Shown here in pieces: positions 10,185 to 21,068 of a stretch of DNA of 64,000 nucleotides. Position 1 is the stretch's first letter. Each line of letters opens with the position of its first letter. The notes beneath the pieces were generated by a model. It saw only the letters and a program-made list of their open reading frames with translations. It had not been told where the DNA came from and did not search any database. A program made the translations under genes and the position numbers. Source of the DNA: Candidatus Hydrogenedentota bacterium (GTDB lineage: Bacteria; Hydrogenedentota; Hydrogenedentia; Hydrogenedentales; SLHB01); assembly GCA_045863335.1 (NCBI GenBank), contig BTVY01000023.1, forward strand, positions 15,755 to 79,754. The letters run 5' to 3'.

Positions 10185-10505
10185 ATGAGCAACGCACAGG
10201 AACTGACGACCAGCAACTTCGATACGACCGTCAATGAGGGGGTCACCCTCGTTGATTTCTGGGCGGAGTGGTGTGCGCCGTGTCGTATGATGACGCCGGT
10301 ACTCGATGAACTCGCCACTGAATACGACGGAAAGGCGCGCATCGGCAAGATCAACGTCGACAACGAGCCGGATCTTGCCATGAAGTTCGACGTATCGAGC
10401 ATTCCAACCTTGATTGTTTTCAAGAACGGCGAGATCGCCAAACGGTTCGTGGGCGTCACGTCCAAGGGCGAACTGGCCGAAGCGCTGGACGGCGCCGCCG
10501 GGTAA
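10185..10505 (+). CDS. trxA: Thioredoxin
   Basis: WCAPC active site, 106 aa, strong AGGAGG RBS. Confidence 0.85.
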   Translation: MSNAQELTTSNFDTTVNEGVTLVDFWAEWCAPCRMMTPVLDELATEYDGKARIGKINVDNEPDLAMKFDVSSIPTLIVFKNGEIAKRFVGVTSKGELAEALDGAAG

Positions 10506-10540
10506 CGCTGGACGACGAGGGCTCACGCCCCTATCTTCGT

Positions 10541-11041
10541 ATGCTGATCAAACTCTGCATCATTGGACTCTTCGGGGTCGCGGCGTATATCGCGGCCTAC
10601 CGATTTGGGTTTGATGGGTCGCGGGGTATCTTGAGGGACCCGCTTACCATCGCCTTGCTGGCAATGGCGGCCGGATACGGCGTGGTGCGCGCTGTCATGG
10701 GTCCCTTGGCCGGACCGATGGTCTGGGCCGAGCCCATTACCGAAGTGAAATCGCAAACGGAGCTGGCGGCGCTCATCGCAGATGCTGGTGACAAGCCGAT
10801 TCTCGTTGATTTCTATGCCCCGTGGTGTATGCCGTGTCGCGCTACCGCGCCGGCCGTGAACGCGATGGCTGCGGAAGGGCACCGGGTCGCGGTCGTCAAT
10901 GTGGACGAAGCCAAACAGCTCGCCTGGGACTATGAGGTCGGTGCGATTCCGACGATCATCGTGCTTCGCGACGGCAATATCGTGGCCCGGGCGCAGGGAG
11001 TCCACACGGCGAGCGGGTTGAGGGCGCTTCTGGAGGGGTAA
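10541..11041 (+). CDS. Membrane-anchored thioredoxin-like protein
   Basis: Two N-terminal TM helices, then a thioredoxin fold with a WCMPC motif. Confidence 0.6.
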   Translation: MLIKLCIIGLFGVAAYIAAYRFGFDGSRGILRDPLTIALLAMAAGYGVVRAVMGPLAGPMVWAEPITEVKSQTELAALIADAGDKPILVDFYAPWCMPCRATAPAVNAMAAEGHRVAVVNVDEAKQLAWDYEVGAIPTIIVLRDGNIVARAQGVHTASGLRALLEG

Positions 11042-11196
11042 CGGTCACCGTCGCGCCAAGGGCGTGACCGTCAGCAACAACACCAATTCAAAACTGTAGA
11101 CCGGGGGAAATGCATCCGGACGCCGGCATGGCGCAGGATGCGCATAACCGTTTGAGATTACGAAGTACGTCTCGAACAGAACGAACGGAGCAAATC

Positions 11197-12201
11197 ATGA
11201 CACCGAAAGTGGTAGCCGTAGCCGGCGCGACCGGCTTGGTAGGACGACAGATGATGCAGGTGCTCGAAGAGCGCAACTTTCCCGTGAAGTCGCTGAAACT
11301 GCTGGCTTCCGAACGCTCCAAGGGGAAAACGCTCACGTTCAAAGGCGAGACGATTCCGGTCGAGGTGCTGTCCGAGGACTCCTTCAAGGGTGTAGACGTG
11401 GCGTTGTTCAGCGCGGGCGGCGGCACCAGCAAGAAGTATTCACCCTGTGCGGCGAAAGACGGGTGCGTGGTGGTGGACAACTCCAGTGCCTGGCGGATGG
11501 ATCCTAACGTGCCTCTGGTCGTTCCGGAAGTGAACGCACACGACATCGCGAAACACCAGGGCATCATCGCCAATCCCAATTGTTCGACGATTCAGATGGT
11601 TGTCGTATTGAAACCGTTGCACGACGCGGCGAAGATCAAGCGCGTGGTCGTGTCCACCTATCAGGCCGTTTCGGGGGCCGGCATCAAGGCGCTGGATGAA
11701 CTCAAGGCGCAGACCCTGGCAATACTCGAGGGCCGGGAACCGGAGTGCAGCGTGTTCCCGTACCCCATCGCATTCAACTGTCTGCCGCAGATTCCCCAAA
11801 GCGATGCGTTTGCGGACAACGGATACTCCACCGAAGAGCTGAAGATGGTCAATGAGACCAAGAAGATCATGGGCGACGATAGCATCCGCGTCACCGCCAC
11901 CACGGTGCGCGTGCCCGTCTTCAGCGGTCACAGCGAATCGGTGAACGTGGAAACCGAAAAGAAACTCACGGCGCAGCAGGCCCGCGAGATCCTGTCCAAG
12001 GCCGAGGGCGTCGTCGTGCAGGACGACCTTTCCAAGCAACTGTACCCCCTCGCGCCCAACGCCGTCGGCAAGAGCGAGACCTTCGTGGGGCGCATCCGGG
12101 AAGACGTGTCGCACCCGTCCGCGCTGGACATGTGGATCGTCTCCGACAACCTGCTCAAAGGCGCCGCGCTCAACGCGGTGCAGATTGCCGAGCGGCTGTA
12201 G
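11197..12201 (+). CDS. asd: Aspartate-semialdehyde dehydrogenase
   Basis: VAVAGATGLVG NAD-binding motif and ANPNCSTI active-site Cys; 334 aa from the internal ATG with an upstream GGAG. Confidence 0.9.
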   Translation: MTPKVVAVAGATGLVGRQMMQVLEERNFPVKSLKLLASERSKGKTLTFKGETIPVEVLSEDSFKGVDVALFSAGGGTSKKYSPCAAKDGCVVVDNSSAWRMDPNVPLVVPEVNAHDIAKHQGIIANPNCSTIQMVVVLKPLHDAAKIKRVVVSTYQAVSGAGIKALDELKAQTLAILEGREPECSVFPYPIAFNCLPQIPQSDAFADNGYSTEELKMVNETKKIMGDDSIRVTATTVRVPVFSGHSESVNVETEKKLTAQQAREILSKAEGVVVQDDLSKQLYPLAPNAVGKSETFVGRIREDVSHPSALDMWIVSDNLLKGAALNAVQIAERL

Positions 12202-12265: not shown

Positions 12266-12365
12266 GGTATGAGGGTTAGGTCCTTTTCCGGCCGGAACAC
12301 ATCCCTCGATTGAACCTGCTTCCTCGCAAGCCTCATACTGGTCGCGGTTGCAGGGGAGAATCGCT

Positions 12366-13820
12366 ATGAAGATGCACAAGCTCGCGTTGCTGCTCTCGCT
12401 GGTACTGGTCGCCGTGCCGGCAGCGTGGGCGGATTTCGATGAAGAAGCGGAGGCCGGCCTCCTCGACGCGTTCTTTTCGCTAAGCCAGTCACAGAACAGC
12501 GAGGCGGCCAACTTCATTGCAGCGTATTTGGCCGACAGCCGGTACGGCACAAGCGACTGGTCCCGCCTGTTCGGTACGTACTTCGAAGAAGGCGGCGGAT
12601 TCACTGCGGGGCACGCGACCTTCTGGAACTGGGCGATCTCCAACTCCGCAGGCGAAATGCAACGGCACATCGGGGTGGTGTCCGGCTTCTGGGCGGCGGA
12701 AGCGATTGGCGGCAGTCTCGAACTCGGCCCCTGGGGCGATACTGTGGCGTACCAGTCCCTGGTATCGGGCTTCGACTGGCTCGCTGGCATTGCGCAAGCG
12801 CTCGGCTCCAACGGCCGCAGCGCGGTCTTCTCAGCCCTATCGGATGCGGCCGGAAATCGCACGATCGCGGCGTTGGCCCAGTCGCCGCAACAGTTCCCGA
12901 CCTACGTGCAGTACGGGCTGATTCTTCGCGAATATGCCACGGGAAACCCCAACAGCCGGAAGGTCGTCAGCGAAATCATGGGGTTTCAAAACGCGCCGCT
13001 GCAGTTCTGGGAAGCGCGCGGGATCTTCCTCTTTGACAACGGCGCGCTCGACGCTGCCCAGTTGAACAGCCTCGACCTGCTCATCACGGTGATCCCAAGC
13101 GAACTCCACAACATCGGCGCCTTCATCGTTCCACAAAGTACGGGCATTCCGGCGGGAACGTCCTTCGCCACGCCCGTGCAGATCGTCTATCTCGAACCCG
13201 TGCCAACCGGCGTGACCACGAATCCCGGCGAGTTTCCGGAACGGCTGGGCCAACCCGTTGCATCCCTGTTTACGGTTTCGACAGCGGCGAGCATTATTCG
13301 CGCCGTGCAGGACATCCAGTTCGCGAAGCGGCCCGAACTGCGCGCGCGCCGCGATATCATTCTCGCAAACGCACGAGGCAAGCGGGAGCGGTTCCTGCGC
13401 CGCTTTCAGATCGTGCCGCCCGAGCAGTACTACGCGGACCCCGATTCCTTGCTTCCTTCAGTAGCCTATCCATACTTCATCGATTCGTCCCGCGCCTTTG
13501 CGATGGGAATGCTCTTGTTCGAGATCGAAAAGCAGGAGGCCATCGACTCGTTTCTGCTCCTTGCGGACCTGTTATCCGGCGGGTCGAACACGACCGTCCT
13601 GTTCGCGACGGATCCTGTCGGGCGAATTACCCACGCCCGCGCATCCTTATCCCGCATCTACCTCGGCCAGATCCGGCAGGCGGCCTCCGATGACTTCGGG
13701 TTCTCGGGCAACTACATTCCCGCGAACATCAACATCTGCAACGGCATCGCCATACAAGGCGCCTATTTTCTCTTCGAACCCGATCCGCAAGGGATCTCCA
13801 TCCGGGTGCACCGCAGGTAA
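12366..13820 (+). CDS. Secreted hypothetical protein (signal peptide)
   Basis: MKMHKLALLLSLVLVAVPAAWA signal peptide; GGGGAG RBS. No recognised domain. Confidence 0.45.
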   Translation: MKMHKLALLLSLVLVAVPAAWADFDEEAEAGLLDAFFSLSQSQNSEAANFIAAYLADSRYGTSDWSRLFGTYFEEGGGFTAGHATFWNWAISNSAGEMQRHIGVVSGFWAAEAIGGSLELGPWGDTVAYQSLVSGFDWLAGIAQALGSNGRSAVFSALSDAAGNRTIAALAQSPQQFPTYVQYGLILREYATGNPNSRKVVSEIMGFQNAPLQFWEARGIFLFDNGALDAAQLNSLDLLITVIPSELHNIGAFIVPQSTGIPAGTSFATPVQIVYLEPVPTGVTTNPGEFPERLGQPVASLFTVSTAASIIRAVQDIQFAKRPELRARRDIILANARGKRERFLRRFQIVPPEQYYADPDSLLPSVAYPYFIDSSRAFAMGMLLFEIEKQEAIDSFLLLADLLSGGSNTTVLFATDPVGRITHARASLSRIYLGQIRQAASDDFGFSGNYIPANINICNGIAIQGAYFLFEPDPQGISIRVHRR

Positions 13821-14233: not shown

Positions 14234-14878
14234 CTATCGGGCTTTCTTTTCCAGCACAACCAGTCCGAACAACTCCAAGACCTCCTCGTAATCGCTCGTC
14301 ACGGACATCAATTCCCGATAGAAGCGCGTAACACCTTCCCAATGGCCGATGTCGTGAAGGGCGACAAGCCCGCCCGGGACAACATGCGGCGCCCACAACT
14401 CGAAGTCCAGTCTGGAACCGTCGTACGAGTGATCTCCGTCGACAAACAGCAAGCGAATGGGACCTTTCCACTCTCTTGCCGCGTCGGCCGAGGTGCTGAC
14501 CACGGGTGTAACGTGGTCGAAGAGATCCAGCTTTCGCAGGTTCTCTTCAAAAACCGGTAGTGTCGAACCTAGAGCGGCGAGATCGGAATCGGCCCATTCC
14601 TGCCCCGCCTGGTGTTCTGGCGATCCGGTGAACGGATCGATAGCGGTCACCTTCTCCCGGCCCGCAGTTTTGGCGCCGTAGGCAAGCCACGCCGTGGAGC
14701 GGCCTTTGAAGCTGCCAATCTCGACGACCGCGCCAACGCCCGGCCCCTGCTCGGCCATCAGCGAGAGAACATACCCCTGCATGTCATCCAGCCAGCCGTC
14801 GATGTCGCGGGTGCGAATCGACATCTGGTGAAACTCCAGCGCGGTGCGGAGCCGGAACATGAGCATTGCGCTAAGCAT
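14234..14878 (-). CDS. Class I SAM-dependent methyltransferase (family-3 O-methyltransferase-like)
   Basis: VVEIGSFKGRSTAWLA motif I, LLFVDGDHSY. Start trimmed to MLSAMLMF with a GAGGG RBS. Confidence 0.6.
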   Translation of the reverse strand: MLSAMLMFRLRTALEFHQMSIRTRDIDGWLDDMQGYVLSLMAEQGPGVGAVVEIGSFKGRSTAWLAYGAKTAGREKVTAIDPFTGSPEHQAGQEWADSDLAALGSTLPVFEENLRKLDLFDHVTPVVSTSADAAREWKGPIRLLFVDGDHSYDGSRLDFELWAPHVVPGGLVALHDIGHWEGVTRFYRELMSVTSDYEEVLELFGLVVLEKKAR

Positions 14879-15045
14879 AGAGACCCTCCCGTTTGGAGCC
14901 TGATGCCAAAAGAATATCGGCGCAAGGAAGAGCGCACAAGCATTCGCCGAAACAGCTGGTGCCGAGCGTTTGCCAGGATGACCCGAATTCCAGTATCGTT
15001 CTCCGAACTTTCCCGGCAGAAGTGCCATCCCAAGGGGTGCTGTTC

Positions 15046-16926
15046 GTGCGAATCTCCATTCGTCATACCTTGCGTATCGCATTACTCCTGGCAGTCGTGC
15101 TCGGCACGGGCTGCTTTGCCGGCGTGTCTCTCAAGCCCGTGCCGACAGCGGTTTCGTTTCGTGAGTTGCAGGGAAATGCGCTCAGCACCAACGGGCTGAG
15201 CATTCACACGAAACAGTTGCTGCGCACCTACAATCTCCAGGAATCCTACCTTGAAGATGTGCGTGGCGCATTGAAGGTCCTTCATGAGGAAGCCTGCAAG
15301 ACCGGCGAACGGCCGATCCTGTTCGGCCTGTCGGAGCTGGCCTGTTTTGCGGGGATGCGCAGCGAAAAGTCTCAGCCGGAAGCAGCGCTCGCCGAGTACA
15401 ACAGCGCCGCCCGGTATGCCTACTTCTACCTTTTCGACGAAGGATTCGGAGCGCCTCCAGACCCCTTCGACCCGCGCTTCCGGCTGGCCTGCAACCTGTA
15501 CAATTTCTCCCTCGCACGGGTGATCGATCTCGTGCAGCGTTCCGGGCATCCGATGGCGGAAGACGCGTACGAGATCCCCCTTTGGAACGGATCCGTGCAC
15601 GTGGACATCGAACGCACGGGCTTCCTGCCGGAGGAGGACATCGACCGGGTCATGCTGGCCACGGAATACGACGTGGTGGGCATTCGGAATCAGTATCGGA
15701 CCTTCGGCCTTGGCGTTCCACTAATCGCGGTGGGAGCGAAACCGCCCAAAGAAAGCTACCTCCCCAAGACCCCAAGTTTTGCGGCCACGGCCTTCCTCCA
15801 ACTGGACGGCACAATATGCGATCCGGCCGGCGCAAGCGGGACTTTGGAACTGTTCGATACCATGCAGATTCACTCGGTATACGTTGCGGAGGCGAAGATC
15901 CCCCTGGAAACGGACATCACGACGCCGCTGGGGTTTCTGTTGTCGAATCCCGAACTGGAGCGCACCGCGTACATCGGGTTGCTGCGCGCCGACCGCGTTG
16001 CCGAAGACGGCGGCCTGTATATGCTCGAACCCTATCAGCCCGGCAAAATTCCCGTCGTGATGATTCACGGGTTGGTGTCCAGCCCGCTCACGTGGGCGGA
16101 GATGTTGAACGACCTGCGCGGCCAACCCGAGCTTCGCGAACGGTACCAGTTCTGGTTCTACCAATACCCGACTGCATATCCATTTGCTTATCCCGCGAGC
16201 CAGTTGCGGAACGCGTTGCGCGAAGTGCGGGAGAATTTTGACCCTGAGCACAACGATGCCGCCTTCGACGACATGGTCCTGATAGGACATAGCATGGGCG
16301 GCCTGATCGCGAAAATGCTGGTCCAGGACAGCGGCGACGCGGTGTGGGGCGCGATTGCCCGCAAACCCTTGGATGAACTGCATGCGTCGCCCGAGGTTCA
16401 AGCGGCCATTCGCGATGTCTTCTATTTCGAACCGCAACCCTTTGTGAAGCGGGTGATCTTCATTTCCACGCCCCACCGAGGAAGCTCGCTGAGTAAGAGC
16501 ATCCTGGGGACCGCAGTGTCACTTTTGATTGCAGTGCCGAAAACGTTACTCGAAGAAGTGTGGTCTTTTATCGACACCAATCCCGGTGCATTGCGCGAGG
16601 ACGTGAAAAAGCGGCGGCTGACGAGCATCGCCAACCTTTCCCCGGACAATCCGGTCATCGAGGTCCTGCAGGAGATCCCCATCGCGCCGGAAGTAACGTA
16701 CCACACCATTGTCGGCAACGTGGCGGAGAAACCGGACGAGGAAATGACGGACGGCGTCGTTCCTTACACCAGTTCCCATCTCGAAGGCGCGGCTTCCGAG
16801 AAGATCGTGGAGGCGGGCCATTCCGCGCACTACCATCCGCTGGCGATTCTCGAGGTCCGGCGCATTTTGCAGGAACATCTTCAAACCCTTCCCGCGGCGG
16901 CCATGGCGGAAGTGCCGGGTCACTGA
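15046..16926 (+). CDS. Secreted alpha/beta-hydrolase (lipase/esterase-like) with large N-terminal domain of unknown function
   Basis: GHSMGG nucleophile elbow, downstream Asp (DGVVPY) and His (AGHSAHYH). GTG start gives the signal peptide MRISIRHTLRIALLLAVVLGTGCFAG. Confidence 0.55.
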   Translation: MRISIRHTLRIALLLAVVLGTGCFAGVSLKPVPTAVSFRELQGNALSTNGLSIHTKQLLRTYNLQESYLEDVRGALKVLHEEACKTGERPILFGLSELACFAGMRSEKSQPEAALAEYNSAARYAYFYLFDEGFGAPPDPFDPRFRLACNLYNFSLARVIDLVQRSGHPMAEDAYEIPLWNGSVHVDIERTGFLPEEDIDRVMLATEYDVVGIRNQYRTFGLGVPLIAVGAKPPKESYLPKTPSFAATAFLQLDGTICDPAGASGTLELFDTMQIHSVYVAEAKIPLETDITTPLGFLLSNPELERTAYIGLLRADRVAEDGGLYMLEPYQPGKIPVVMIHGLVSSPLTWAEMLNDLRGQPELRERYQFWFYQYPTAYPFAYPASQLRNALREVRENFDPEHNDAAFDDMVLIGHSMGGLIAKMLVQDSGDAVWGAIARKPLDELHASPEVQAAIRDVFYFEPQPFVKRVIFISTPHRGSSLSKSILGTAVSLLIAVPKTLLEEVWSFIDTNPGALREDVKKRRLTSIANLSPDNPVIEVLQEIPIAPEVTYHTIVGNVAEKPDEEMTDGVVPYTSSHLEGAASEKIVEAGHSAHYHPLAILEVRRILQEHLQTLPAAAMAEVPGH

Positions 16927-16980: not shown

Positions 16981-17502
16981 ATGCCGTCCGCACCCCGTAG
17001 CCATCCCAACACTTTCCGAGCCTTGTCCTCGTACTGGGCCGATTCGAATCGCATCGACGACCTTTTAACACGCGAAGAGCACGACTTTGTAGCCGTCGCG
17101 GTGCGGGAGTTCCGGCGCCGGTTCGGAGACGTAAAACCGACCGTGGTGATGCGGATCGAGGGGGTGATCATGCTCTACGTGCTCGCGCGCCGGGCCGGAC
17201 TTGCGGCACTTCGTGCGGGCCTCGCGCCAACGGATCTAAACCGGCCGCAGAAAGATGGTAAGACGCCCGCGGCTGATGATGTTTGCAGGGCGCACGATCA
17301 TCTTCGCAAAGCGGTAAAGGACCTCGAGGACGCAACAGGAGACGGCGAGACGGCAGTGGCGCAAGGGGTCGCGGACCTTCTCCGGCCGCTGCTCAAGGAT
17401 ACGGAAGGGTTGGCGGAGTCCCTGGCGAATGAGGATCGCGAAGCGGGGTCGAATAACGGCCTGCCGTCCCGGCGTCGCGACTCCGTTGCGGCGGGGCCGT
17501 GA
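16981..17502 (+). CDS. Hypothetical helical protein; candidate terminase small subunit
   Basis: Position immediately upstream of, and translationally coupled (GTGA overlap) to, the terminase-large-like gene. No motif-level support. Confidence 0.3.
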   Translation: MPSAPRSHPNTFRALSSYWADSNRIDDLLTREEHDFVAVAVREFRRRFGDVKPTVVMRIEGVIMLYVLARRAGLAALRAGLAPTDLNRPQKDGKTPAADDVCRAHDHLRKAVKDLEDATGDGETAVAQGVADLLRPLLKDTEGLAESLANEDREAGSNNGLPSRRRDSVAAGP

Positions 17503-18977
17503 ACCGGATGCGATCGCCACACTACGAACGCGCCCGGCGAGAGTTGAAAACCCGCGGTTTCAGCGACGATGCGGTCCGACAGTGGTTGAATCTGCACGAG
17601 CGCGCGCGATTCGCCCATGCATACCTCCCCGGCGCGAAGGGCCGGCCCTGGATGGTGCGGGACTACCAGCGAAAATCCCTCGAATCCTTCGCGCTGCGCA
17701 AGGTGCATTGCGATGGTCGTGACGTGGGCAAGACGGCGGAGATCGAAATCATCGCGGCGTGGGCCATGGTCGCATGCCCCGACACGGAGATGCTCATCGC
17801 CACGCAGTGTGAGAATCATCTGTTCCCGTTGATGCACCGGCTCGTGCGCCGGTTCCAGACAACACCGGCTTTCGCGCCAAGCCTCGTTGAGTTGCGCCGG
17901 TCGCCGTCCTGGTTCCTTCGATTCTCTAACGGGTTCGTCCTTTGGGGGCGCATTGCGGGTCCGCGGGGAATGAATTTCCAAGGGCTTCACGTGGACTGGC
18001 AAATCGTGGACGAAGCCCAAGAGATGACCGAGAATTCCTGGGGAGAGTTGTATCAGGCGTTGAACGGGTGCGGCCGCCGCTGGGTGTATGGCGTGCCAAA
18101 TGGCTTGCGCAATACCTTCTACCGCATGACGCGCATGCCGGACGCGGAACAGTACAACTGGCCGTCCACGCTGAACCCGGATTACACGGCCGAGAAAGAC
18201 GCCGAGTTAACCCTGCTCTACGGCGGCAAGGATTCGCCCGGCTATCTTCATCGCGTACTCGGACTCCACGGATCACCGGCCCATGCCGTCTTTAATCTCG
18301 ACCACTATCAGGAATGCGTAGACGACGGTATTGACTTCCTGGCGCTGACTGTGGACGAGCAAGACCCGCTTGATCTGCCGGGCGCCACCGAACCGGGGGA
18401 ATACTACCTCGGCTGTGATCTGGGCTACGCGCGCGACCCGTCGGAATTCGTCGTGTTCCGAGCCGAGCCGCCGCACTTGACCAACGTGATACGGGTGCAT
18501 CTTCGGGGCGTAAACTATGCGCGGCAACAGGAGATCATTGTCGAACTGGACGCGGCGTTTGACTTCCGCTCCATCGGGATTGACTGCGGAAACAATGGCC
18601 GTGCTGTCGCCCACAATCTCATGGCGCAGGGGCCGTTGTGGTGCGAGAAGGTTCGCGCCTTCGAGTTCGGTTCGGTTTTGGAACTGGAACCGTTGCCGGA
18701 CGGCCGTCCCGACCGACGCCCCATGAAGACGTTCATGACCGAATTGCTCCAGCGACACTTGGCAGACCGGTCGGTCGTGTTTCCGCGCTTGCCGGACCGC
18801 GAAACGCAGTATGCCTCGCACACGTACTCAATCGGCATCAGCGGTCAAGTGCTGTTTGAGAAGGGCAACGATCACATCATCGACGCCGACCGATGCGCCG
18901 TGCTCGCCCATTATCTCGACACCCAGCGCGGGACCGCGGCGCCGTCAATTGGCCGTATGCGGCTGGAAGGATTCTGA
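17499..18977 (+). CDS. Phage terminase large subunit-like ATPase-nuclease
   Basis: Walker A-like DGRDVGKT, Walker B LHVDWQIVDEAQEM, C-terminal RNase-H-like nuclease Asp motifs (LGCDLGYARD, IGIDCGNNG); 492 aa. Confidence 0.55.
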   Translation: MNRMRSPHYERARRELKTRGFSDDAVRQWLNLHERARFAHAYLPGAKGRPWMVRDYQRKSLESFALRKVHCDGRDVGKTAEIEIIAAWAMVACPDTEMLIATQCENHLFPLMHRLVRRFQTTPAFAPSLVELRRSPSWFLRFSNGFVLWGRIAGPRGMNFQGLHVDWQIVDEAQEMTENSWGELYQALNGCGRRWVYGVPNGLRNTFYRMTRMPDAEQYNWPSTLNPDYTAEKDAELTLLYGGKDSPGYLHRVLGLHGSPAHAVFNLDHYQECVDDGIDFLALTVDEQDPLDLPGATEPGEYYLGCDLGYARDPSEFVVFRAEPPHLTNVIRVHLRGVNYARQQEIIVELDAAFDFRSIGIDCGNNGRAVAHNLMAQGPLWCEKVRAFEFGSVLELEPLPDGRPDRRPMKTFMTELLQRHLADRSVVFPRLPDRETQYASHTYSIGISGQVLFEKGNDHIIDADRCAVLAHYLDTQRGTAAPSIGRMRLEGF

Positions 18978-18989
18978 TCTTGCGGTCTC

Positions 18990-21068
18990 TCACAGACCGT
19001 TCAGCACGTTGCTTACCCGCTCGGTGAGCACGTCCGCCGTAAAGGGTTTCTGAATGAAGCGGTCTCCCAGTTGCTCCGCGATAAACCGGGAATCGCGGTT
19101 TTCGATATGGCCGGACATGAACAAAATCCGCATGTTCGGCCAAGTCTCAAGGATGCTCTCCGCCAGATCGCGGCCCGAAGGTCCAGGCATGACCATATCC
19201 GTCAACACCAGATCAATGGCCGTCCCCTGCCTCTGGAGAATTCGCAACGCTTCACGAGCATTCGGGGCGGCGAGAACCGTGTACCCCTCCTTCTGAAGGA
19301 TCCGTTCCACGACCTTACGGACCGACTCTTCATCCTCCACAACAAGAACCGTGCCTTCCGCATCGGTTCTCCGATCGCGCGGCGCTGGGGAATCAGCGTC
19401 TTCCTCGGTGTGCTCCGCCACCGGCATCGCGATCGTAAAGACCGATCCCTGGCCGGGCGTACTCTCGGCCACGATCTTGCCGTCACAACTTCGGACAATG
19501 GCGTACACGGTGGAAAGCCCCAAACCGGTTCCTTGACCCTCCTCCTTTGTCGTAAAGAACGGTTCAAAGATACGGGCGAGGACTTCCGGATCCATTCCCA
19601 TGCCCGTATCGGAAACGCTGAGGTGTACGAAACTGCCGTCCGGCGCTTCCTGAAGCGCTTTGCGCAACCTGGGCCGGTCCACACGGGTACGCACGGTGAT
19701 CGCGCCGCCTCGCGGCATGGCGTCGCGCGCATTCACCACCAGATTCAGTAACACCTGTTCGATCTGACTGATGTCCGCATAGATGTCTGGCAACGACGAG
19801 GCCAACTGCACGTCGAGCCTGATGTTCTCGCCGATGAGACGGCGCAGCAATTCGTGCATATTCTTGATGATCTGATTGAGATTCACCACGCGACGGCTCG
19901 CGACCTGACGCCGGCTGAAGGTTAGTAGCTGCCGGGTCAGGGCAGCGCCGCGCTCGGCGATGCCAAGAATCTCCTCGGCTCCAGACTGCACGGCTTGTGT
20001 ATCCCCGGGCTGGCCTGCCATCAAGTCGGCGGTGCCCATGATGGCAGTGAGCAGATTGTTGAAATCATGAGCGACGCCGCCGGCCAGCCGGCCAACCGCT
20101 TCCATCTTTTGGGCCTGCCGAAATTGATCTTCGAGCTTCCGAAGATCAGTCACGTCGAGCCCGTAAATAAGCACATGCGTCACATTGCCGTTTTCGTCAA
20201 GAATGGGTTTGTGCGTGCGAATCCAGTGTTCGACGTCTCCCGATTCAAGCGGGAATCGTTCGTCGAACTGCATCACCTCCTTGCGCGCCACCACAAGATT
20301 GACCCACTCGGTGCGTTGTTTGCCGATCTCGGGATTGATCCCGCGGTATTCGCAGTACTCCTCCATCGTCTGCCCGATAATCCAGGATCGTGTTTCCGGG
20401 TCTGGAACCGCGCTGGGAGAAGCGTACTCGTACCGGCACGAACTGTCGACCATGGCAATGTGCGCGGGCAGCAAGGCCAGCAGCTCCTCATAGAATTCAC
20501 GCAGTCGTATCGCTTCCAGTTCGGCCCGGCGCCGCTCCTCGATATTCTGCGTGATGGACAGGATGCAACGTTCGCCATTCAATGTAATGAGCCGCGCATA
20601 GAATAGACCGTGAATGACCTCGCCACCCTTCTTGCGGACGCGAATCTCCAACCCATTAATCTCGCCGTCTTGACGTAGCGCATCCACAATGCGCTGCCGG
20701 TTCTCGCCATCCGCCCAGAGGCCGATCTCGGCGGAAGTGTGTCCGATGATCTCCTCCCGAGCGTAACCGGTCCGCATAATGAACGCTTCGTTTACATCGA
20801 AGAATCGTCCATCGGCGAGCGTAGCAATCGACATGGAGAAGGGGCTGTCTTCGTAGATAAACTGGCGGAAATCCTGCGCATGGGCGCGGCGGGCCATTTC
20901 CTCGTCGAGCGCCTTGTACAGCCGTTCATTCTCCGCGAGGAGACTCCCCAGCGATTCCTGAATGGCGTCACATGCCTCTGTGCCGCCGGGCAGATCCTTA
21001 ACCAGTCTGCTCAGTCCGGACAATTCGGCTCGGACCTTCGCCTCTATATTGTTCTTCTGATTTGTCAC
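18990..21068 (-). CDS. Hybrid sensor histidine kinase/response regulator with PAS domains
   Basis: H-box HDFNNLLTAIMG, HATPase N/G boxes, C-terminal REC domain (LVVEDEESVRKV...DLVLTDMVMPGPSG). Confidence 0.85.
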   Translation of the reverse strand: MTNQKNNIEAKVRAELSGLSRLVKDLPGGTEACDAIQESLGSLLAENERLYKALDEEMARRAHAQDFRQFIYEDSPFSMSIATLADGRFFDVNEAFIMRTGYAREEIIGHTSAEIGLWADGENRQRIVDALRQDGEINGLEIRVRKKGGEVIHGLFYARLITLNGERCILSITQNIEERRRAELEAIRLREFYEELLALLPAHIAMVDSSCRYEYASPSAVPDPETRSWIIGQTMEEYCEYRGINPEIGKQRTEWVNLVVARKEVMQFDERFPLESGDVEHWIRTHKPILDENGNVTHVLIYGLDVTDLRKLEDQFRQAQKMEAVGRLAGGVAHDFNNLLTAIMGTADLMAGQPGDTQAVQSGAEEILGIAERGAALTRQLLTFSRRQVASRRVVNLNQIIKNMHELLRRLIGENIRLDVQLASSLPDIYADISQIEQVLLNLVVNARDAMPRGGAITVRTRVDRPRLRKALQEAPDGSFVHLSVSDTGMGMDPEVLARIFEPFFTTKEEGQGTGLGLSTVYAIVRSCDGKIVAESTPGQGSVFTIAMPVAEHTEEDADSPAPRDRRTDAEGTVLVVEDEESVRKVVERILQKEGYTVLAAPNAREALRILQRQGTAIDLVLTDMVMPGPSGRDLAESILETWPNMRILFMSGHIENRDSRFIAEQLGDRFIQKPFTADVLTERVSNVLNGL

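Follow-up and report, generated by a model that had tools for sequence, protein, structure and literature searches.

A terminase pair among housekeeping genes of a Hydrogenedentota genome as the probable packaging module of a dispersed, gene-transfer-agent-like element

A stretch of 64 kb from a Candidatus Hydrogenedentota bacterium (contig BTVY01000023.1, positions 15,755 to 79,754; the whole stretch is called the window here) carries, between genes of the host, two adjacent open reading frames (ORFs) for a 173-aa protein and a 492-aa protein, the second of which is a phage-type terminase large subunit (TerL). We compared the pair with its counterparts in related genomes, all of them metagenome-assembled genomes (MAGs; their loci carry the numbers L001 onwards), and with phages. 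We suggest, with a probability of about 0.6, that the two genes form the packaging module of a phage-derived element that is dispersed, inherited vertically and similar to a gene transfer agent (GTA) or viriform. The genes and the motifs of TerL are as follows.

16981-17502, plus strand: small ORF of 173 aa with an ATG start, abutting TerL upstream; predicted all-helical protein, conserved partner of TerL and candidate terminase small subunit (TerS)
17499-18977, plus strand: TerL ORF of 492 aa with a GTG start; an alternative ATG at 17508 gives 489 aa
17712-17735, plus strand: Walker A motif (P-loop) DGRDVGKT, aa 72-79, with the terminase-type P-loop arginine R74 and with K78 and T79
18003-18020, plus strand: Walker B motif IVDEAQ, aa 169-174, with D171 and the catalytic glutamate E172, both invariant
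18090-18104, plus strand: GVPNG, aa 198-202, after the Walker B strand; candidate coupling (C) motif
18411-18425, plus strand: nuclease motif I GCDLG, aa 305-309, invariant, with D307
18576-18602, plus strand: nuclease motif II GIDCGNNGR, aa 360-368, with D362; strand of aa 358-362 in the AlphaFold2 model
18870-18896, plus strand: nuclease motif III DHIIDADRC, aa 458-466, with D458, D462 and D464

As a preliminary description of this DNA had proposed from the motifs, the 492-aa protein is an intact TerL: an ASCE ATPase forms its N-terminal part and an RNase-H-fold nuclease its C-terminal part, and all catalytic residues are conserved. It matches the PHROG family phrog_2, 'terminase large subunit', with E=4.6e-17 over aa 10-475, and has no match by sequence in Pfam-A (E<=1), NCBIfam or the PDB. 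The description had looked to Pfam profiles for both proteins; neither matched one, and it was PHROG and the fold comparison below that placed TerL. An AlphaFold2 model built on 34 homologues (mean pLDDT 79) retrieved T4 gp17 (6e-18), the D6E terminase, HK97 TerL (full length, TM-score 0.50) and Sf6 gp2 in a Foldseek search of the PDB, as well as isolated ATPase or nuclease domains of P74-26, G20c, SPP1, P22 and RB49. The ATPase domain aligns to the ATPase structures of T4 gp17 and P74-26, and the nuclease domain to those of G20c, P74-26, SPP1, P22 and RB49 with TM-scores of 0.54-0.76 relative to the target.

The motifs were scored in an alignment of 34 sequences and then in a wider set of 82 that includes divergent paralogues. 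The Walker A motif is invariant in 34/34 sequences and, apart from conservative changes, in 82/82. YGVPNG is near-invariant (78 of 82) and differs in a few sequences, the paralogue at L156 included; GVPNG was assigned as the candidate C motif by its position. In the AlphaFold2 model, D307 of nuclease motif I closes the first strand of the RNase H fold (aa 301-307). Within motif II, D362, G364 and G367 are invariant among the 34 sequences and the two glycines throughout the 82, while N365 varies and R368 is replaced in an early-branching lineage (clade B, below) and in distant paralogues. Motif III, which opens the C-terminal helix (aa 459-476) of the model, is invariant in 82/82, paralogues included. 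D307 and D362 of the first two nuclease motifs likewise hold in the divergent paralogues, as do R74, K78 and T79 of Walker A and D171 and E172 of Walker B. The four stretches that the description had picked out (DGRDVGKT; VDEAQEM, aa 170-176; GCDLG; IGIDCGNNG) are thus present and conserved across the homologues.

The two genes had also been described as translationally coupled through a GTGA overlap. This overlap is present in the sequence, the GTG at 17499-17501 overlapping the TGA at 17500-17502. However, the in-frame ATG at 17508 is the start of P0001, a 489-aa database protein 100% identical to TerL, and the N-termini of the homologues fit this ATG better than the GTG. We predict that ATG 17508 is the likely true start, in which case the two genes may lie 5 nt apart instead of overlapping by 4 nt. 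In relatives, the distance between the two genes ranges from an overlap to ~3.5 kb, so coupling is not conserved.

The pairing of the two genes is conserved. A family hidden Markov model (HMM), built from a few upstream ORFs, finds a member upstream of TerL and on the same strand in 65+ loci, and also upstream of two distant TerL paralogues, at L157 (TerL 53% identity; E=3e-22) and L156 (TerL 45% identity; E=7e-13), implying that the pairing is old and persistent. The family itself is weakly conserved, its members in the wider alignment being 15-43% identical to the protein of the window and those of the closest relatives 89-96%, and its conserved features are an LRKAxKELE helix and a GLADxxxPLL motif. 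The ratio of nonsynonymous to synonymous substitution rates (dN/dS, Nei-Gojobori) of the small ORF is 0.39 and 0.24 in comparisons with L009 and L010. The AlphaFold2 model of the protein is all-helical with low confidence (pLDDT 53). No match was found in Pfam, PHROG or NCBIfam, and a PDB profile search returned designed helical bundles only. A Pfam scan of 37 family members gave scattered noise, with Terminase_4 touched by one of the 37 at E=0.006. Comparison by HMM and hhalign with the 230-320-aa ORFs that precede TerL in related phages revealed no similarity (hhalign probability 0.1%). The 173-aa protein is therefore best described as a conserved partner of TerL and a candidate TerS: the position and the conserved linkage on which that label rests hold up, but profiles, structure and phage neighbours add no support to it.

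A cluster of portal, capsid and tail genes is co-conserved in the same genomes at separate loci, in line with one of the possibilities raised in the preliminary description, namely a GTA-like module whose structural genes lie elsewhere. On a 5.1-Mb Hydrogenedentes chromosome (L001/L086), TerL is followed by one inserted gene and then by head and tail genes: a Mu-type portal (phrog_3753, 5e-46), a phrog_16951 protein, a virion structural protein, the major capsid protein (PF25209; phrog_3922, 2e-51), a Dit-like tail protein and further genes. The capsid protein of L001 has 360 homologues; the best 120 of these are 349 aa long and 67-73% identical, and they come from MAGs whose prefixes match the TerL hits, with distant locus tags. 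Such capsid and TerL pairs in one MAG are HZB26_14225 and _13770, and IT364_26615 and _17250, and likewise in JXR94, HY706 and HPP83. On a 540-kb contig (L007), a 12-gene cluster lies ~31 kb from the small ORF and TerL, in the opposite orientation, in the order portal, 240 aa, 81 aa, 245 aa, 126 aa, capsid, 138 aa, Dit, 579 aa, 173 aa, 167 aa and 122 aa, between lptE/holA and trx/trx/asd; the terminase pair of this contig is also flanked by housekeeping genes. The cluster genes match phage portal, major head, Dit and structural families (portal PF06074; capsid Phage_capsid_4, PF25209). In the MAG SJ204 (L012), which belongs to the same clade as the window by its upstream abhydrolase gene and has a TerL 78% identical, capsid, 138-aa, Dit, 579-aa, 173-aa and 123-aa genes followed by fumarase lie on a different contig from TerL.

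Only six of the 80 species loci (L086, L019, L028, L031, L043 and L063) have the cluster within 10 kb of TerL, and all six belong to the TerL lineage of the window (clade A). The genes that border the cluster across L007 and L159 are lptE/holA, trx/asd and fumarase, and in L002-L008 as in the window housekeeping genes flank the terminase pair. In the loci examined, which for the structural cluster are those of relatives, neither the cluster nor the packaging locus has genes for integration, replication or lysogeny beside it.

Several observations concern the cluster and its surroundings. The 579-aa protein encoded after the Dit-like gene (L007:12267-14006; L159:2330-4069; L001:19863-21467) has a faint similarity to nucleases, which is unusual at a tail-tip position: the Pfam SNase match is faint, and a PHROG endonuclease matches with 1.5e-5 over ~70 residues. 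The trx-trx-asd block that directly follows the cluster in L007 (15906-18224) is also present in the window (10185-12201), 4.8 kb upstream of the small ORF. We considered it as a marker of the cluster site in the window and rejected it, because an aldo-keto reductase gene precedes the block there. That the same block follows the cluster in L007 and an aldo-keto reductase gene in the window suggests a rearrangement around the site.

A search with TerL of 2.9 million IMG/VR contigs and 50,697 phage genomes found no copy more than ~35% identical in either. The nearest viral TerLs are 23-35% identical, and the nearest deposited phage is Microcystis phage MACPNOA1 (28%). In the related phages, TerL directly precedes a homologue of the portal gene in 54 loci and a homologue of the 240-aa gene in 39 loci. 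Since these phages keep the portal directly after TerL, the adjacency is taken to be ancestral and the dispersal derived. A TerL that adjoins the portal in a head-morphogenesis module is thus seen in ~6/80 orthologous loci and in 54 related phage loci, and not in the window.

Within the phylum, TerL is widespread and conserved. A search of 5.8 billion proteins gave 421 TerL homologues. The 120 best of them have full length (~487-490 aa) and 67-82% identity, and their names say no more than 'hypothetical protein' of Hydrogenedentes MAGs. Among the species representatives of GTDB there are 144 relatives; the best 80 of them are 62-97% identical and all come from Hydrogenedentota-type MAGs, and all 80 assessable orthologue ORFs are full-length. 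L009 (MAG HYD1, 94.6% nucleotide identity) and L010 (~90%) are collinear with the window over 21 kb. In comparisons with these two loci, the dN/dS of TerL is 0.13 and 0.083, within the range of eight flanking host genes (0.02-0.23) whose dS is similar to that of TerL. Catalytic intactness and selection, two checks named in the preliminary description, thus both favour a maintained enzyme. On a simple neighbour-joining (NJ) tree of TerL, drawn without support values, the loci with the upstream abhydrolase gene (the window and L009-L013) are monophyletic, and so are the 29-30 loci with a 3D-domain gene between the small ORF and TerL. Monophyly of such synteny classes is what vertical descent in situ predicts.

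The 3D-domain gene encodes a lipoprotein of ~150 aa (PF06725, as in MltA-type murein hydrolases) on the same strand as its neighbours, at L001:7338-7820, L037:8206-8793 and 27 further loci (L039-L088); the lineage of the window is without it. It could be a peptidoglycan hydrolase for the release or entry of the element. A '113-aa ORF' between the 3D-domain gene and TerL was considered as a new component and rejected, because it is the opposite-strand shadow of an esterase gene. Many MAG records with a Hydrogenedentota-type TerL are titled 'uncultured Nitrospiraceae/Nitrospirales bacterium' (L010, L018, L019, L025, L038, L046, L047, L060, L063, L071, L072, L076 and L081). These labels appear to be wrong; L010, for example, is the locus collinear with the window mentioned above.

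The surroundings of the pair in the window look like those of resident genes. The two flanking genes, which the description had identified as a lipase-like gene and a convergent histidine kinase, are as follows.

14893-16926, plus strand: Abhydrolase_6 protein, upstream flank of the small ORF
18990-21068, convergent: PAS-HisKA-HATPase-REC hybrid kinase, downstream flank of TerL

Farther upstream lie genes for an aldo-keto reductase, two thioredoxins, asd, a 490-aa protein and a methyltransferase, and farther downstream genes for a second aldo-keto reductase, lgt, a transglutaminase-like protein, DUF748, DUF1318 and a YfhO-like protein, so that the neighbours of the pair are housekeeping genes. 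The GC profile is flat around the pair, without a compositional anomaly. The window contains no tRNA gene and no Rfam match, its repeats are short matches at chance level with no att repeats among them, and promoter and terminator scans stay at background level. A tblastn search of the 64 kb with the 12 cluster genes of the family found 0 homologues of its portal, capsid or tail genes, and the ORFs were partly profile-scanned for unrelated phage genes. The isolation of the module reported in the description therefore holds, and the window bears no sign of a prophage in the form of a tRNA target, significant repeats, a GC shift or other cluster genes.

Two of the neighbouring ORFs deserve a remark. 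The 490-aa ORF (12348-13820) has a signal-peptide-like N-terminus and no Pfam match; it is kept in L009 and L010 with a dN/dS of ~0.09, and is therefore a real gene, of unknown function. The longest abhydrolase ORF overlaps the divergent methyltransferase gene (14234-15082, minus strand) by ~190 nt, and its true start is probably farther downstream because the orthologue at L003 has 616 aa, not 677 aa.

Additional terminases occur in the relatives; the preliminary description had advised looking for other copies in the rest of the genome. Clade B (L073, L077, L078, L084 and L085) is a second, early-branching TerL lineage that keeps all catalytic motifs. Four of its five members are second copies beside a canonical TerL in the same MAG, including HYD1, the nearest relative of the window. 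No small upstream ORF accompanies clade B, and the copy at L078 lies among metabolic genes. The clade B gene may be a paralogue that works with an unknown partner or in an unknown role; mixed bins are a less likely explanation. A third type is found at L156:8064-11527 in the MAG CAYOCT01 (the same MAG as L018), where the TerL paralogue has 45% identity and its own homologue of the small protein; two ORFs come before it, one of 189 aa with an HNH-like motif (VDHIDGNPYDCRARNL...SHN, read by eye) and one of 261 aa, and DUF2971 is nearby. This locus may be a separate, more prophage-like remnant.

From these results, we consider a domesticated, GTA-like element the best account of the pair, because an intact packaging enzyme occurs together with an equally conserved head and tail set under purifying selection at the level of host genes, and because descent is congruent with synteny, close viral copies are lacking, and the packaging and structural genes are physically apart. 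Once the element is expressed, the small protein would bring TerL to DNA, and TerL would dock on the portal of procapsids made from the distant cluster and pump DNA into them with ATP. At a full head, the nuclease of TerL would cut the DNA and end packaging, and the particles formed would carry host DNA. Tens of kb or more separate the packaging from the structural genes, so that the element is unable to package itself as one unit, which is the hallmark of GTAs and not of phages.

Some results weigh against this account. The structural cluster is known from the genomes of relatives, one of them in the clade of the window itself. No tail tube, tape-measure or lysis gene was recognised in the cluster, and the small protein does not detectably resemble any TerS family or the ORFs before TerL in related phages. 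Across eight MAGs, TerL and capsid distances gave r=0.19 and p=0.34 in a Mantel test; the test is uninformative because the distances are star-like, all about equal. The clade B and L156 types, found without nearby phage genes, imply that terminases of Hydrogenedentota might have roles other than packaging too. Lastly, it is from the genes that we infer particle production, random packaging of host DNA and transfer.

The isolation of the pair among host genes, with no portal, capsid or integrase in 64 kb, is also what would be left of a decaying prophage after deletion of its other genes, the terminase genes drifting to loss. This possibility, raised in the preliminary description, is very improbable, since the 80 assessable orthologues are full-length with invariant catalytic motifs, the dN/dS of 0.08-0.13 equals that of host genes, orthologues occur in at least 144 species genomes, and the same genomes retain matching structural genes; purifying selection and so broad a conservation effectively refute it. 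The same description had raised a satellite-type redirecting module like the phage-inducible chromosomal islands (PICIs), to which we add an active mobile prophage that is merely common. A small and a large terminase gene without structural genes do resemble what we know of some satellites, but no integrase, att repeat, tRNA, satellite gene or compositional anomaly was found in the window, the module stays put with its flanks across species, in synteny classes that are monophyletic on the TerL tree, and the viral collections hold no close copy. We regard this explanation as the most improbable of all.

Two further alternatives keep the genes functional and are harder to set aside, although both are unlikely. 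TerL and its partner could have been exapted for defence, repair or DNA export independently of capsids. The distance between TerL and the structural genes in most genomes fits such a role, as do the paralogues of clade B and of the L156/L157 types among metabolic genes without phage neighbours, and a small partner unlike any known TerS. However, clade A, the lineage of the window, is the one that adjoins the portal-capsid cluster whenever the two are linked, the full two-domain architecture of TerL is kept, and the equal conservation of capsid and portal in the same genomes is hard to explain without a packaging enzyme, which makes exaptation rather unlikely. The other alternative is a PBSX-type killer particle, in which DNA-containing particles kill competitors or release DNA without productive gene transfer. 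Its gene content would equal that of a GTA, so that the two are computationally indistinguishable, and both the 579-aa tail-region protein with its faint nuclease similarity and the murein-hydrolase-like 3D-domain lipoprotein of one large subclade would suit it. The Hydrogenedentota set is dispersed and phylum-wide, whereas PBSX-like elements are contiguous and restricted to a species or genus, and we judge a killer particle unlikely, if not to be dismissed lightly.

The GTA-like system of Hydrogenedentota looks like a previously undescribed one; in the literature on Hydrogenedentes with terminases or GTAs, we found no description of such an element. To our knowledge, about five GTA lineages have been recognised, each found experimentally in cultured organisms, and the one proposed here would be a candidate lineage, recognised by sequence alone and conserved across a candidate phylum without cultured members. 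More tentatively, and at somewhat below even odds, the set might be a sixth, independently domesticated GTA, a phylum-wide, vertically inherited set of ~14 phage genes divided between a terminase locus and a portal-capsid-tail locus, with particles that transfer host DNA. If true, the domestication of tailed phages would reach a new part of the bacterial tree, TerL, its small partner, the portal and the capsid would form a marker set for metagenomes, and the extra TerL paralogues would be a further diversification or exaptation of the packaging motor. It would also explain the 'hypothetical' or 'phage capsid' labels that annotators and virus-prediction tools give in Hydrogenedentota MAGs. With terminase and portal separated and terminase paralogues at hand, the phylum would be a natural system in which to study how packaging motors are maintained or repurposed after domestication.

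The TerL of the window has the same two-domain fold of ASCE ATPase and RNase-H-like nuclease as the terminases of T4 (gp17), D6E, HK97, Sf6 (gp2) and G20c/P74-26, with Foldseek E-values of 6e-18 to 1e-11 against characterised phage terminases, and shares with them the Walker A motif with a P-loop arginine, the DE of Walker B and three acidic nuclease positions. The sequence identity to these enzymes is just 10-18%, and they belong to phage genomes, whereas the TerL of the window is chromosomal and vertically inherited. The nearest viral relatives of TerL belong to uncultivated phages of ~40-45 kb in IMG/VR and to MACPNOA1, where TerL is followed by homologues of the portal and of the 240-aa protein that is encoded after the portal in the Hydrogenedentota cluster. 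Unlike the dispersed set, these are contiguous phage genomes with recombinase genes, and their ORFs before TerL, 230-320 aa long, bear no similarity to the 173-aa protein.

PBSX-like defective prophages are resident, phage-derived particle genes that package host DNA, PBSX itself being a contiguous element under repressor control with a narrow host range. The Hydrogenedentota genes are likewise resident and phage-derived, and would likewise package host DNA, but they are dispersed and occur in at least 144 species genomes. RcGTA (Rhodogtaviriformidae, Alphaproteobacteria) comprises a compact head and tail set with both terminases and no integrase or replication genes, and is vertically inherited under purifying selection from more than one locus; its terminase and portal genes are contiguous, and its portal and capsid are of HK97-type families. 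The Hydrogenedentota TerL usually stands apart from the portal, and its host belongs to another, uncultured phylum. Since its portal is of the Mu type, its capsid belongs to Phage_capsid_4 and its TerL falls outside Pfam and NCBIfam models, the element appears to have originated independently of RcGTA; TerL and the small protein have no NCBIfam match, and the two systems are set apart here by family assignment, not by direct alignment. In its compactness, its freedom from integrase and replication genes, its vertical descent under purifying selection and its spread over more than one locus, the Hydrogenedentota element, known from its genes, nevertheless finds its closest analogue by function and evolutionary pattern in RcGTA.

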